A DNA stretch of 64,000 nt from Amphiscolops sp. MND2022 (taxonomy: Eukaryota). Positions 37,001-43,000 of the stretch are shown here, piece after piece (positions within the stretch are counted from its first letter, which is position 1; each line of letters starts with the position of its first letter). The stretch is taken from NCBI GenBank assembly GCA_964187785.1, contig OZ076409.1, forward strand, positions 36,830,001 to 36,894,000. The letters run 5' to 3'. The notes under the pieces were generated by a model, which saw only the letters and a program-made list of their open reading frames with translations, was not told the origin of the DNA and ran no database searches. The position numbers were made by a program, and so were the translations under genes.

Positions 37001-40000
37001 ATCGGTCGATGGATTATGGCTCTTGAAAAATATCACTTCAGCATTGAGCATCGACCCAGAACGCAACATCGAAATGCTGATGGTCTTAGCAAACGAACAA
37101 ATGATTACAAAAAACACGAAAAGCAACTAAAAGGCTTACCCGCAATTGCAGACAAATGGGATTTCCTGTCACAGGAGGAATATAACAAACTCCCGCTAGC
37201 CCCATGGTTCGACGTCCACGGACGCGTGATACCAAATCATCCAGAATTGCCTGCACACTTGCAGAGGTTGGGTAGCCAAAGTTCACCCGAGACCACAGTT
37301 GCCGCTCCCTCGCGAAAGAGCGGAGGAAGCAAACGAAATGCAACCATACGCGAGGAAGCCATGAGAGCGCCTCTACCTACATTGCCAAAACCAGAATTGA
37401 CACTGCCCGCCGAACTTTATCCAGAATATCCTGAGGATTGGTTAGAACTGACCGAGGAATATCAACGAGACTATCTACTCCCCACGCATGCTGCTAACGT
37501 ACCATCAAGAACCACTTACCCACTAATGGAAAAGCAAGCAACTAGCACTGCACCAGAGCACGTAAAACAAGCCGCGTTTGTGGTAAACAGCATATCAATG
37601 GAACTGCATGAACATGCTAACACAGTCCATGGATTGAAGGATCTACTACTAGCACAAAACCGTGACGTCCATATATTGGCCATCAAGAAATTGGTAATGC
37701 AAGAATCAATAGATAATGACGTCTTTCCGGAAAATGTGCGCACCTTTGCCAAAAACTACCACAAACAGAAGAAGAACCTCCTACTGATAAACGCCAACGG
37801 GATTTTGTGTGTAAAACACTCCAAAACTCAAAGAGCTTTGCATGAACGCCCCTGTATGATAGTGATGCCACAATTGTATCAGCATGAGATACTATTCAAG
37901 GCCCACGACGCGATGGGACATCAGGGCATCGCGAAAGTCTTGGCCAGAATCCAAGAGCGCCACACTTGGCCAGGCATCCGCCGCACCATTGGACAATACG
38001 TCAGTCAATGTATCACTTGTCAACAAGTACGCGACAAGCCTGGTGATGTACGCTTTCACTTGAAAAATATCCAAAGCGGTTATTTCAACGAGCTAGTCCA
38101 ATATGACCACATGAAAATTTGTCCCTCTGATGATGGTAACACAGGGATATTGGTTATTATCGATCATTTCTCTAAGCTCGCAGAAGCTGTGCCATGTAAC
38201 CACGATGAGTACGATGCAGCGACCACTTCAAAGTTGTTGTTGCAGAAGTGGTTTGCCCGCCATGGAACGCCAACGAGGATGCAGTCAGACAATGCTCCCA
38301 ATTTCACCGCGGCAGTATCTGCTGAGTTTATGAAAGCAGCCCAAGTGACCAAAGTAACCTCAACTGCTGGCCACCCCAGGACTCAAGGGTTGGTAGAACG
38401 ACAAAACCGAACGCTACTCACCCTACTGCGTGTATTCTGCTCTAGACGAATGCGTGACTGGGATCAGTACCTAGATGAAGTTATGGGTGCATACAACTCC
38501 ACACGTCATGCCACTACTGGATTTTCCCCGTATATGCTGACCAGAGGCATGGAAAAAGCTATACCCCTGACTTTTTTGTATCCGGAATTTGCAACTCAGT
38601 CATTCGAATCACACGAAGCCTATGTGGAACATGTGCTGGCTCGACAACAAGAGATTCATGACTTAGTCCGTCGCAACACGCATCAAGCCCAACAACGACA
38701 AAAATTGAAGTACGACAGAGCAATTCGTGCTAAGGCCTACGAAGTGGGCGAACCTGTTTGGGTATTCTGCCGATACATTCCTCAAAAGGGATCTCCCAAA
38801 TTGATGAGAGCGTGGCGTGGTCCTCACAAGGTAGCACGAGTGCTACAAGAGGGACGTGTTTACATACTTGACACTGGGCAGAAAGTGCATTTCGAACGAT
38901 TGAAACCGCATCATGGTGGTCCAACAGAATGGGCAGCTGTTCCTGCGCATAACGGCGAGGTTGCTATTATCATGGACCCTGATCCAGAACAATCCCATGA
39001 GGAGGTGAGAGACGATGCTTCACAACCTTCTTACCGTGCAGAGGAACCAATTTCAGAAGCCAGTGATGCCTCTTTGCCTTCTCGACAAAGACATTGGATG
39101 GACACACGGTTACGCACACACATGCGCGCAGGTGGCAGCCGCCTACATTATCAACAATTTGGCTACTCTTCGACTGAGTCTGACGATGAACGTTCTGATG
39201 TACTCCTATCGAGTGCTCAAACAAATCCTGACGAAAGTGTCATCTTGCCATCACAAGTAGACGAGCCTGCGCCTATTCCCGAAATGCCAATATCACCACT
39301 ACCTGCTATGGAGGCTCTATTTTCAGAGAATGAAGCAGTACCAGACGCATTAGATGTCGCCCCGAATCCTAATATCCACGTACCCACCGAAAGTGCCGCC
39401 ACTTCTTTGACCGGTACATCCGCCCCATTATTGACAAATCCATCTCTTACGGATATGTTGAGTAACTTTCCCATTTGGCCCCTAATCGATGACAATGACC
39501 TCAACCCAACCCTGGACGACGACGGTGCCGACACACCAACGACCAATAACGAAAAGGGATCAATTCCCCCTGTAACAAATCCCATCAACAATGATGCAGC
39601 TACTACCACGAAACTCCCCAATGCTCCTAGAGGGCGTGGACCCCGGGGACGTCCGCCAGGCAGAGCAAGGCCGCGAGCCTCGCTACCACGTGGTCACCAA
39701 CGGAGAGGTGCTATTAGAGGCACTCGCAAAAGAGGCCGTCCCAGAGGTAGACCTCCTCGTACAACGCACGCCAGACCTAACACTCCTACCCATATTCGTA
39801 ACACTCCATCAATGGACACTGACTCTTCTGCCCCTAGCGCGGCGGTTACCTCAGATCAGGCAGCACCACCAGAATCGACCAACGCTCATTATGGACTGCG
39901 ACGCAATCGTATTCCCAGATATCGTTGCGGAACATGTGGCCTACGAAACTGCGAATGTAACTACATGGTCCACGCGGGCTTCCCAATCGAATCCCAGGGA

Positions 40001-43000
40001 GTCCTACTAGCACGTGAACAGGAGAAACCACTTCCGAGCGGAATGGTTGACCGTTTGGTTATTCGAGCCGAGAAAACCTACACTGGGCTACAACGCAGTG
40101 ACACTCCATATCCCGTGGACTATATCCTATCCAAAATGAAGGATTCTACGATAGCAAGGGCTCCGTGCCCAAGGTTCAAGGAGTGGACCTATGATCTTGT
40201 TGGTTTGGAGTTCACCTTACCCATCACTGTTCCCCCTTTGCCTACAAATATTGCTTTTGGTCCTTTCAACTATGAGCGAGAGCCTATCCAAATGATACGC
40301 TGTATTCCTGCTGACCTCTTGTACGACAAATACAACGTCACAGCAAAACCAGGAGACGTTTATCAGCCTACAAGCAACTGGTGGCTACTAGTTACGGCCA
40401 AACAAGCATCCGACCTGGTTCATCCCACTAACTTGAACACCTGTCTGGAGAGTTTGCGGACGATGGCCTCTCCTGATAGAATCACTTGTTTCCACACCAT
40501 AGATCTATATCGTGGTAAAATTAAGTTTGAATGGTGGCTGGAACTTATCATAGCAATCTTATCGAATTTTTCACGAATCAGATTCCTGGATGAATGGACA
40601 CACTCATTTCCTAGTCCTGTATCTCTCCAATCGGCCCTGCACGCACTGGATACATGGTCCAGGGCTAATATTGATAATCAATCTTTGCCGCGATCTGTGT
40701 GGCAAGATTTGGGCGCAATCAAGGGCCTCCTCCCGAATGCATGTGACGATGCTCTTTCCAAGGACCCCGGACGAGAGTTAGTGTACCATGGAGCCGCGAG
40801 ACCTCAATTGGTTGACTATGTGCAGTATGCCAATACGGACTTCCTGCAGACTCCCCATCATATCGTTTTATGTTGTCCTGCAAATCTGGAAACTAGTTCT
40901 GCCGCTCTTCGTTACGTCATTCGTGAGCATGGTGCAGATGCAATCTTTCAACTTCGACCGGAGGTTGGCAATATTGTAACGCTACCCACGTCTTTGATAG
41001 ACGGCCATCCTCAGACTATCCACCTTTTAATCACACGAGCTACACCTCGCTGCCCTATGCTCGCTGATATTCTTTTTGGATGTCTTGATCATTTGAAAAC
41101 GTTACTCGAGCGCTTGGAGGCGATAGAAGTACACTTTGCCATTGTTGATCCTGAACGCCCAATACGTAATCTTTTTGATTTTTATGCCTGTTTGATGGAC
41201 GTATTCGCCGACACCCCCCTGACCGTCGTTCTTCACGATCGCGTTTACGTATCTATTGCAAGCGTCGCTAGCTTTCCGTAAAACTTTCGTTTGTCCGCTT
41301 TCTTTTTTTTGTTTTTCGTTTTTTTTTGTCCGCTCGATTAAGTTTAGTGAATCGATACGAAGTTTATTTGAGACTATTACGTTATCTTTTTCTTTAATGT
41401 TAATGTGTAACATTCTATTACTTTCCCTGGTATTACCCTTAAATGACCTATGGTGTTACCCTACTATCAAGTGTGCTACAATCGACCTACGCTCTTTCAG
41501 AACTGTCGTCATGAACCAAGATAATGATAGAAGCAACAACGTCCCGCCGAGGTCTACAGACAACTCTCCTGCCTTGGGGCAACGCGTCTATGACACTGCG
41601 CGTGTCCAACGCACCCCACAAATTGCCTTTATTCGAGACAGACTCGACCAAGGTCTGTCGCCAGCTGCAGTGGCCGGGGTAGCAGCAATAAATGCCCAGA
41701 TGGAATCACAATTGCAAGCCCCAATGCTAACGATATCAATTACCTCAGGGTTTCCTGGATTTCAACGATCCATGACGTACCAAGATGGAGTGTGGCACGG
41801 CCATGATCTTACGCATCACTTCACAGATGATCGTGCGGCGATCTCGTATAGTCTTGCGAATGGCGGAGTCCACCAGACTAGACCTTTACAGATCCCTTCT
41901 TGCCCGCCTCCACCTCCACCGCCACCTCCTGTACCAACACCACAAGCAGTAGTGCGCGCGCGCACTCCTGCTCCTATGGTGCCTAGCCTGCCCAATCAAT
42001 CTATGGCGGAGGAAGCAGTCATTTCAGCGCTACAAGCAGTGGCTGCCAATCCCAATTACGATGACTTCATGCGATCCATGGAGCAGTGTTGGCCAGAGCT
42101 ACGTCGAATTGCTCTGCCCACTGTCACTATTCGCAACGACAATGCGACTTCAACTGAAACACGTCAAGGTGTCATCACTATTCCCCACATCAATCCTCAG
42201 TCTGAACAGCCAGGACACTCTCGCACCGTGACTGTGGAACGCAGTCGTTCGCCTTCCCGCTCTTCTCAAAAGGGGGGAGGAGAGAGCCGCCCTGCCTCCA
42301 GAAAGCGCAACGACCCCTCCCCAACAAAGAAGACTCAACAACCATTGACTGCCCGTGACAGCCCCTCGAGCAAGCCACCACCCGACAAAAAGATTTCCAA
42401 CGAGAAGGCCACAACCTCCAAAGCGCCAGACCAAACGAAGTCAAAAGTGTCGGAAGCATGCGTGCTTCCCTCACCCCAATCACAACCGGACGTGACAGGC
42501 GAGCAACAAGGACTGCCGCAACCACCATCCACGCAGTCTACAACACGCGAGTCGCTGGCTCAACGAGCGACTCCTAAGCCCTCCACGTCAGGACAGCCAC
42601 AATCGGAGCAAACTGTGGGTTATCAAGGCACCCCTGTATCCCAGCGAACTGTCAAGGACATAATGGGTGATTACCCAGGGTTGAAAGTGACCAACAGTGG
42701 TCCAACTGGAACCCCACTCCGGAAACAGGCGATTCAACATCCAACTAAGAGGACCTTTACGAAACAGCCGACGTACCTGAGCCCCATGCAGAACACAAAG
42801 GGCACATTGGTCACCAAGGATTCCCGACGTATCTGGGAATCGGCAGTTATAGTATCGCCCGAATGGCTATTTGAGAAAAACATGTGTCCTCCAAATGACG
42901 AAGAGCACGCGAAACTGAAGAAGGCAAATGTACCCGTATTCATGAATCGTCCAATCCGCCCAGACCACACTCCTACCAATGAGCCGCCATGGCTAGGGAA

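Follow-up and report, generated by a model that had tools for sequence, protein, structure and literature searches.

A Ty3/Gypsy Retrotransposon of Amphiscolops sp. with a Predicted Tandem Pair of TARG1-Class Pseudo-Macrodomains behind Its Integrase

Introduction

This work addresses a long terminal repeat (LTR) retrotransposon in a 64,000-nucleotide stretch of DNA from Amphiscolops sp. MND2022 (GenBank assembly GCA_964187785.1, contig OZ076409.1, positions 36,830,001 to 36,894,000 of the forward strand). The whole stretch is referred to as the window, and all coordinates are those of the window. The Pol protein of this Ty3/Gypsy element does not end at its integrase, but continues in the same frame into a long tail, in which two macro folds of the TARG1 class, D1 and D2, are predicted. 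The residues on which the chemistry of TARG1 relies are replaced in both of them. A first-pass annotation of the letters had reported about 800 extra residues after the integrase, bearing RGRP motifs, a Cys cluster and two TARG1-like segments, and had suggested a targeting module that reads ADP-ribose or chromatin, or an anti-PARP defence. The extension, both motifs and two predicted macro folds with TARG1 as top match were recovered here, and the proposals built upon ADP-ribose fared less well. We will describe the element, the predicted folds and their altered pockets, and then weigh a tentative role of the tail as a tether to host chromatin.

The Element and Its Coding Frame

The element occupies 28391-47622 (19,232 bp) and is flanked by two exact repeats of 734 bp with TG...CA ends (Table 1). 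Because both LTRs are identical, the insertion is likely recent. Its gag-pol frame encodes, by Pfam amino acid positions, a zinc knuckle (867-883), an aspartic protease (1126-1213), a reverse transcriptase (RT, 1519-1679), an RNase H (1745-1877) and the zinc domain (2156-2210) and core (2229-2325) of the integrase, followed by the tail, an order that fits Ty3/Gypsy. Among 29 solved sequences, the best relative of the RT-integrase part is the Ty3-G Gag-Pol (E 7.5e-95) and the next non-Ty3 match follows at E 6.2e-42, which places it nearer to Ty3 than to retroviruses or caulimoviruses. The element is a Ty3/Gypsy LTR retrotransposon.

Target site duplications of Gypsy elements measure 4-6 bp. At this one site the flanks share only three nucleotides, CTT (28388-28390 and 47623-47625), with no match at 4-8 nt; the short CTT could have arisen by chance or be typical of the family. 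Over 100 nt, the left flank has 53% AT and the right flank 81%, which, for a single insertion site, is uninformative on targeting.

Table 1. Features of the retrotransposon, its integrase tail and its second frame, in window coordinates
Feature	Position	Strand	Details
5' LTR	28391..29124	+	734 bp, TG...CA; letter-for-letter repeat of 46889-47622
Primer-binding-site-like motif TGGCGACCAC	29141..29150	+	16 nt inside 5' LTR end; seen in sequence, presumably of the primer-binding-site type
gag-pol single frame	31403..41281	+	3292 codons stop to stop; first ATG 31514
Integrase	37868..38902	+	H2C2 zinc domain, D-D-E core, C-terminal module; Pfam PF17921, PF00665
Acidic low-complexity linker	38903..39622	+	240 aa; 40 D+E, 12 K+R
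Basic AT-hook-like stretch	39623..39772	+	three RGRP cores; 50 aa with 18 K+R, 0 D+E
Cys4 cluster C-x2-C-x4-C-x-C	39890..39970	+	Cys codons 39926, 39935, 39950, 39956
Beta/helix extension ahead of D1	40043..40243	+	predicted folded, pLDDT 83-95; no fold match of its own
D1, predicted shortened TARG1-class pseudo-macrodomain	40244..40594	+	predicted model, profile comparison
Two helices after D1	40595..40732	+	conserved; predicted
D2, predicted complete TARG1-class pseudo-macrodomain	40799..41248	+	predicted model, profile, structural alignment
ORF2	41223..45878	+	1551 aa stop to stop; env position; Met 41511 matches start of closest relative
3' LTR	46889..47622	+	same sequence as 5' LTR

Layout of the Integrase Tail

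The C-terminal module of the integrase ends with VHFERLKPH, at 38885 and near amino acid 2500, and about 790 residues remain after it. At E<=1, Pfam returned nothing relevant past the integrase core, whether for the whole tail or for its parts. Neither its AT_hook nor its Chromo family was listed, and the predicted structures, which cover the last 463 residues, have a macro fold there. The three RGRP cores (39644, 39731 and 39743) lie in a basic context, as expected of AT-hooks. When the 330-aa linker was shuffled 10,000 times, three or more such cores never arose; with the local 50 residues shuffled, 8 of 10,000 trials reached that number. All six aligned relatives carry at least one. The Cys cluster, found at 39926, probably binds zinc. 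All four of its cysteines are kept in 55/55 long relatives, and its region has a low predicted local distance difference test score (pLDDT) and is not resolved in the model of the 463-aa tail. A low-complexity linker of about 330 residues separates the Cys4 part from the integrase, a short linker lies between the basic stretch and the Cys cluster, and the folded part of the tail comprises about 410 residues.

Predicted Folds of D1 and D2

The AlphaFold model of the last 463 residues has a mean pLDDT of 83 and a predicted template modelling score (pTM) of 0.64, and its top match in Foldseek is TARG1 (E 7e-9). With residues 303-453 (residues of the tail are counted from 39890), a wide structural aligner covering 48,161 chains returned C6orf130, which is TARG1, at Z 16.6, DarG at 15.7, a Bt_1257-type domain at 14.1 and Poa1p at 13.0. 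Superposed on TARG1 (4j5r), the D2 model gave Z 18.2 and a root mean square deviation (rmsd) of 2.0 over 137 aligned positions, of the 141 residues of TARG1. The D1 part, modelled separately (pLDDT 90.4, pTM 0.82), found TARG1 in all of its best eight Foldseek rows (top E 9.8e-5). Its alignment with TARG1 (Z 10.6, rmsd 2.8, 115 aligned) is tied with that of a Bt_1257-type domain (10.2) and near that of DarG. D1 and D2 are thus predicted to be two TARG1-class macro folds, the minimal macro fold of TARG1 (also OARD1 or C6orf130; PDB 4J5R, 4J5S, 2LGR) being the best structural match of both models. TARG1 belongs to the ALC1-like macrodomain class, together with DarG, Bt_1257, SCO6735 and Poa1p. 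Both folds are predicted models, and the placement of the two domains relative to each other is uncertain.

The sequence profiles support the TARG1 assignment weakly but specifically. A profile of the tail had five matches in the PDB at E<=10, all of them TARG1 (E 0.76-0.98), and the D2 profile had seven, the top five being TARG1 (E 0.013), which is therefore also the best profile match for D2. No PDB match was obtained with the single tail sequence (E<=10) or with the D1 profile, and none of the 57 members of the D2 alignment matched the Macro family of Pfam at E<=1. In Atlas features, the top matches of D2 (0.91) are unnamed phage proteins, and a cluster with 14% Macro stands at rank 12 (0.89), which is a lead only. 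A viral fold library returned macrodomains of insect RNA viruses and phages at 7-19% identity, a result that does not show an origin.

D1 is about 23 residues shorter than D2 in the profile comparison. Trimmed profiles of the two domains matched over 112 columns with a probability of 91.2 (E 1e-6), and the reversed control reached 1.0. This resemblance, at a probability of 91%, suggests that D1 and D2 are likely products of a tandem duplication. The first-pass annotation had set its two segments at about 40280-40600 and 40810-41240, bounds which the models shift to those in Table 1. Of the likeness to TARG1 that it saw, the pairing of IHLLITR with IYYLITK is in register (gapless, E 0.013), as is the second, longer stretch that was paired, and the K of WLLVTAK is a chance resemblance. 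Considered as the catalytic Lys, the latter was rejected: it falls one residue beyond the Lys84 site, and among the 53 long relatives with a residue at its position one has K.

An Altered Pocket

TARG1 catalysis relies on Lys84 and Asp125 (PMC9411070, PMC7050489). A third site is informative through the mutant G123E, which gains no stability from ADP-ribose, has no activity and fails to be recruited to damage, but still binds RNA through surface patches (Butepage et al., PMC5928194). The numbering was fixed on TARG1 itself, in which the D of GCGLD comes 41 residues after the first K of ITK. A gapless profile alignment of 74 columns between D2 and TARG1 equates R383 with Lys84, E422 with Gly123 and P424 with Asp125 (codons at 41036, 41153 and 41159), and the same register follows for the three residues from the end offset of 299 in the structural alignment. 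The GCGLD loop, which had been noted as lost, is replaced by DPERP.

These changes recur among the relatives. For the residue counts, 150 fragments and 6 long proteins were searched, and 61 rows of D2 and 68 rows of D1 with at least 40% cover were kept. Among D2 rows with a residue at the site, the Lys84 position is Arg in 48/52 and Lys in 1/52. In the loop, D420 is found in 34/36, E422 in 30/36 and R423 in 31/36 rows, and any Gly at 420-422 in just one of 36. The Asp125 site is Pro in 23 and Ser in 7 of 37 rows, with no Asp among the five commonest residues; in the 52 long relatives with D2 it is Ser in 50 and Pro in 2, and R, D and E at 383, 420 and 422 are present in all of these. In D1, with a register taken through D2, the Lys84 site is Ala (42) or Ser (16) in 61 rows and the Gly123 site is Tyr (41) or Phe (7) in 52. 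Lys84, Asp125 and a glycine loop whose Gly123 leaves room for the diphosphate, the hallmarks of a TARG1-type hydrolase, are each absent from D1 and D2. Since both copies share the motifs C-x-x-A-D-L and D-x-x-R, the glycine loop was likely altered before the duplication.

The anti-PARP defence that had been proposed, taken as removal of ADP-ribose, is unlikely, because the Lys84/Asp125 pair is absent from both domains and the Gly123 site is Glu, Tyr or Phe. D2 could still act as an ADP-ribosyl hydrolase, by a mechanism of a new kind, and erase PARP marks from the proteins, RNA or cDNA of the element. The mechanisms of the class do vary, in that DarG has kept just the Lys, and SCO6735 works without either residue (PMC9411070, PMC7050489), and the Arg at the Lys84 site is well conserved. 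However, such an enzyme needs to bind ADP-ribose despite the Glu at its Gly123 site, its Asp125 site is Pro or Ser, and an Arg would presumably be unable to make the Lys-type Schiff base described for TARG1 (PMC9411070). We regard this role as highly unlikely.

Reading of ADP-ribose was the other proposal of the first-pass annotation. Here D2 would bind ADP-ribose or poly(ADP-ribose) (PAR) in a remodelled pocket, as ALC1 reads PAR, and guide integration to ADP-ribosylated chromatin, such as damage sites. The predicted D2 fold is complete, conserved polar residues (S337, R341, R383, H415, D420, E422 and R423) flank the ancestral pocket, and the arginines could bind phosphates. Additionally, D317 stands, by the start offset, at the position of TARG1 residue 20 and is Asp in 34/44 rows; we take this TARG1 residue to have a role in adenine binding. 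Against this stand the Glu at the Gly123 site, the near absence of Gly from the loop and the shortened D1, and in TARG1 the very change G123E loses both ADP-ribose binding and damage recruitment (PMC5928194). A reader role in this form is doubtful and, in our estimate, quite improbable. Because the catalytic and ADP-ribose-binding residues of TARG1 are absent, D1-D2 are likely a non-enzymatic binding module. The pocket site of D2 is likely in use, judging by its conserved residues, and would either hold a ligand or be plugged by a salt bridge.

Relatives and Conservation

With the last 463 residues as query, 55 proteins of Pol length were recovered among 5759 candidates. The whole tail is in frame in 52 of these, one ends after D1 and two end earlier. 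By tail identity (97, 53 and about 41%) they form three subfamilies, whose RT-RNase H parts differ by up to 26%; as 50 of the 52 full-tail relatives make up the subfamily at about 41%, they are not independent. Among representatives at 50% identity, 316 proteins matched at E<=0.001. The analysis used the best 150 of them, fragments for the most part, and 149 entered the folding alignment. The 38 D2 rows of at least 90 residues fall into 13 clusters at 60% identity, some perhaps being decayed copies. In the nearest protein cluster there are 1094 proteins. A search for longer proteins whose D2 is more canonical yielded, among 6954 candidates, just 11 members of the family itself, and no donor was found among them. 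A metagenome scan for DNA of relatives, made with a single protein, confirmed 0 of 21 pattern matches.

Conservation was compared between the present copy and the relative P0007, and between the present copy and four members of the distant subfamily. In this order, the identities are 94 and 83% for RT, 89 and 68-69% for the integrase, 67 and 70-74% for the Cys cluster, 64 and 42-43% for D1, 46 and 43-45% for D2, 45 and 28-30% for the long linker, and 21 and 13-25% for the short linkers. By these identities the tail is under constraint, though far less than RT. The loss of catalytic residues and an identity of just 42-64% between subfamilies might suggest a decaying passenger without function. 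Full length and an intact frame in 52/55 long relatives across three subfamilies, the confident predicted folds and the four invariant cysteines speak against such a passenger, which we find scarcely credible.

A Candidate Tether to Host Chromatin

We tentatively favour, at somewhat less than even confidence, a role of D1-D2 as a pseudo-macrodomain pair that would act with the AT-hook-like and Cys4 motifs and hold the integration complex to host chromatin as a tether. It is favoured because the position of the pair matches that of reader domains behind other Gypsy integrases and because the AT-hook-like and Cys4 motifs travel along with it. The first-pass annotation had remarked that chromoviruses carry a targeting chromodomain at this position, and this agrees with the published lineages (PMC12477816, PMC13524379). 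In such a course of events, a TARG1-class domain would have been captured at the end of the integrase and its glycine loop changed to D-x-x-R before it was duplicated. The tail would remain joined to the integrase through the flexible 330-aa linker, the RGRP motifs would grip DNA and the Cys4 cluster would bind zinc. The remodelled pocket of D2 would take a host chromatin protein or peptide instead of ADP-ribose, with D1 as a scaffold or second surface, and the tail would bias insertion sites as chromodomains do from the same position. D2 has a median net charge of -2 (n=18) and D1 one of -1 (n=25), and such a neutral to acidic pair favours a protein partner over nucleic acid.

A related proposal is that the pocket of the duplicated fold was rebuilt as a reader of a chromatin mark or of a PAR-modified nucleosome, and so targets integration, with Arg, Asp, Glu and Arg in place of the Lys and the glycine loop. 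This is rather unlikely, in our judgement. If true, the element would be the first retrotransposon guided by a macrodomain, and its pocket a natural example of a macro fold that changed ligand.

Several points weigh against the tether. The evidence comes from one insertion site only. The protease of the element could cut the linker and free the tail from the integrase. Relative to P0007, D2 is kept no better than the long linker, and shared-variant sites per site, counted in 50 copies that belong to a single subfamily and are not independent, reach 0.133 in D2 against 0.006 in the integrase and 0.082 in the long linker, with 0.167 in the region ahead of D1. The high variation of D2 may equally fit a role in host conflict. 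As to the pocket, the precedent of SCO6735 means that the loss of Lys84 and Asp125 alone is no proof of inactivity, and the positions flanking the pocket of D2 are better conserved (0.73 versus 0.55, permutation p 0.0007), a weak statistic, as the 22 positions were chosen after the column counts were seen. With D317 as described above, a nucleotide-like ligand may therefore still suit D2. Finally, the loop registers depend on models and on a profile match that is weak, and that of D1 is indirect.

Some of these points suit a different role, in which the protease would release the tail as a counter-defence or host-interaction factor, acting as a non-enzymatic decoy or adaptor for a restriction protein or for a TARG1 or PARP partner. 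The 330-aa low-complexity linker lies where such a cut would fall, between integrase and tail, D2 and the pre-D1 region are more variable than RT and integrase, and ADP-ribose-related domains have been acquired by retroelements more than once. However, the AT-hook-like and Cys4 neighbours are kept in all three subfamilies, which fits nuclear DNA binding, and the variation may stem from two sublineages. We consider a released factor rather unlikely.

The pair might also bind the RNA, cDNA or particle proteins of the element itself, in packaging, reverse transcription or nuclear entry, by analogy with SUD-N/SUD-M. These tandem macrodomains bind G-quadruplexes and show no phosphatase activity (PMC7967035), and TARG1 G123E retains RNA binding (PMC5928194). 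The relatives of ORF2, the second long frame of the element, also show tiers of identity (95, 83 and 42-56%) like those of the tail. On the other side, neither D1 nor D2 is basic, and a pattern scan found the canonical G-quadruplex pattern on neither strand of the element. Such a role appears improbable.

For the tether, existing assemblies should allow a test of insertion bias, because the nearest cluster is so large and the LTRs are identical. Tails of this type are likely missed in repeat annotation, because Pfam does not see the domain (0/57).

Comparison with Known Systems

D1 and D2 share 13-18% identity with TARG1 and differ from it in the replaced Lys84, Gly123 and Asp125 sites, in their tandem arrangement with one copy that is shortened and bears additional strands and helices, and in their fusion to a retrotransposon Pol. 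Chromodomains and a Tudor domain follow the integrase in other Gypsy lineages (PMC12477816, PMC13524379), and the MAGGY chromodomain directs insertion to H3K9me regions (bioRxiv 2021.11.30.470311). Chromoviruses such as MAGGY, the chromodomain and Tudor lineages of Ectocarpus and the chromodomain errantiviruses likewise carry an accessory domain fused after the integrase. Here, unlike in those elements, it is a predicted macro pair, set off from the integrase by a 330-aa linker and accompanied by AT-hook-like and Cys4 motifs. The macro fold would thus join the short list, chromo and Tudor, of domains found after Gypsy integrases.

Retroelements have captured folds that handle ADP-ribose elsewhere. 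Frames with a macro domain occur in fish epsilon-like endogenous retroviruses (Basta 2009, cited in the review PMC4977317), and NADAR domains in the Pol of Ectocarpus Gypsy elements and in ORF1 of oyster Tx1 (PMC12477816). In both the position is another one, and the available text reports neither a duplication nor an altered pocket. The best analogy for how D1-D2 may work is offered by SUD-N/SUD-M of sarbecoviruses (nsp3 Mac2/Mac3), tandem duplicated polyprotein macrodomains that have lost ADP-ribose chemistry and are now binding modules (PMC7967035). The SUD chains are not close kin of D1 and D2, with Z 6-8 versus 10-18 for TARG1, and two features set them apart, since D1 and D2 are not basic and the element is without the G-quadruplex pattern.

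In the full-text literature searched, with most subscription journals, Repbase Reports and supplements outside it, no account was found of a macrodomain pair after an integrase or of such a pocket change, and the same holds for the available text of PMC4695847, PMC12859917, PMC11696869, bioRxiv 2020.09.24.311225 and PMC12910113. The C-terminal halves of Pol were modelled in PMC13524379, the supplements of which could bear on macro tails. Within this scope, macrodomains in retroelements are already known, and the position after the integrase, the duplication and the altered pocket were not found before. Poa1p/TARG1-like domains are presumably annotated automatically in insect Gypsy Pol proteins. 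What the present element adds is a retroelement that appears to have kept and duplicated a TARG1-class domain after its known chemistry was lost. In fact, D2 naturally bears the change, G123E, that was used in the laboratory to abolish binding by TARG1.

Other Features of the Element and the Surrounding DNA

The leader (29125-31513, 2.4 kb) is without a long frame on the plus strand. Ahead of a capsid-like region, 31514-33250 encodes about 580 residues that probably include a coiled coil. Extra beta-rich segments flank the protease on the plus strand, at 34550-34700 and 35150-35420; by eye, we take the first, which precedes the protease, to be a degenerate second protease-like piece and the second, which follows it, to be dUTPase-like, neither having a Pfam match. 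ORF2, from Met 41511, encodes about 1455 residues with a Pro/Ser-rich start and has 11 relatives at 42-95% identity. It had no Pfam or PDB match, and its Atlas features reached 0.81 or lower. After Met 41511 there are marginal hydrophobic segments only and no signal-like start. By eye, its residues 650-830 show what we take to be an SGNH-type alpha/beta pattern.

The Gypsy element is nested in a Polinton-like element (5378-47808) with inverted arms of 68 nt, 96% identical, at 5378-5445 and 47741-47808. The latter has matches to polymerase B, A32 ATPase, integrase and adenain; those to polymerase B (14809-17545) are spread across neighbouring frames, interrupted by stops and a frame change, and the end of its last frame (27592-28395) is interrupted by the LTR element. 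Its left end holds a 134-bp tandem unit in more than 20 copies (about 6200-9770). On the plus strand of 48000-64000 lie exon-sized pieces of a dynein heavy chain (Pfam MT, Dynein_heavy, Dynein_C), and the nested elements likely sit in an intron of this gene. A perfect palindrome of 72+72 nt with no spacer is found at 57971-58114.

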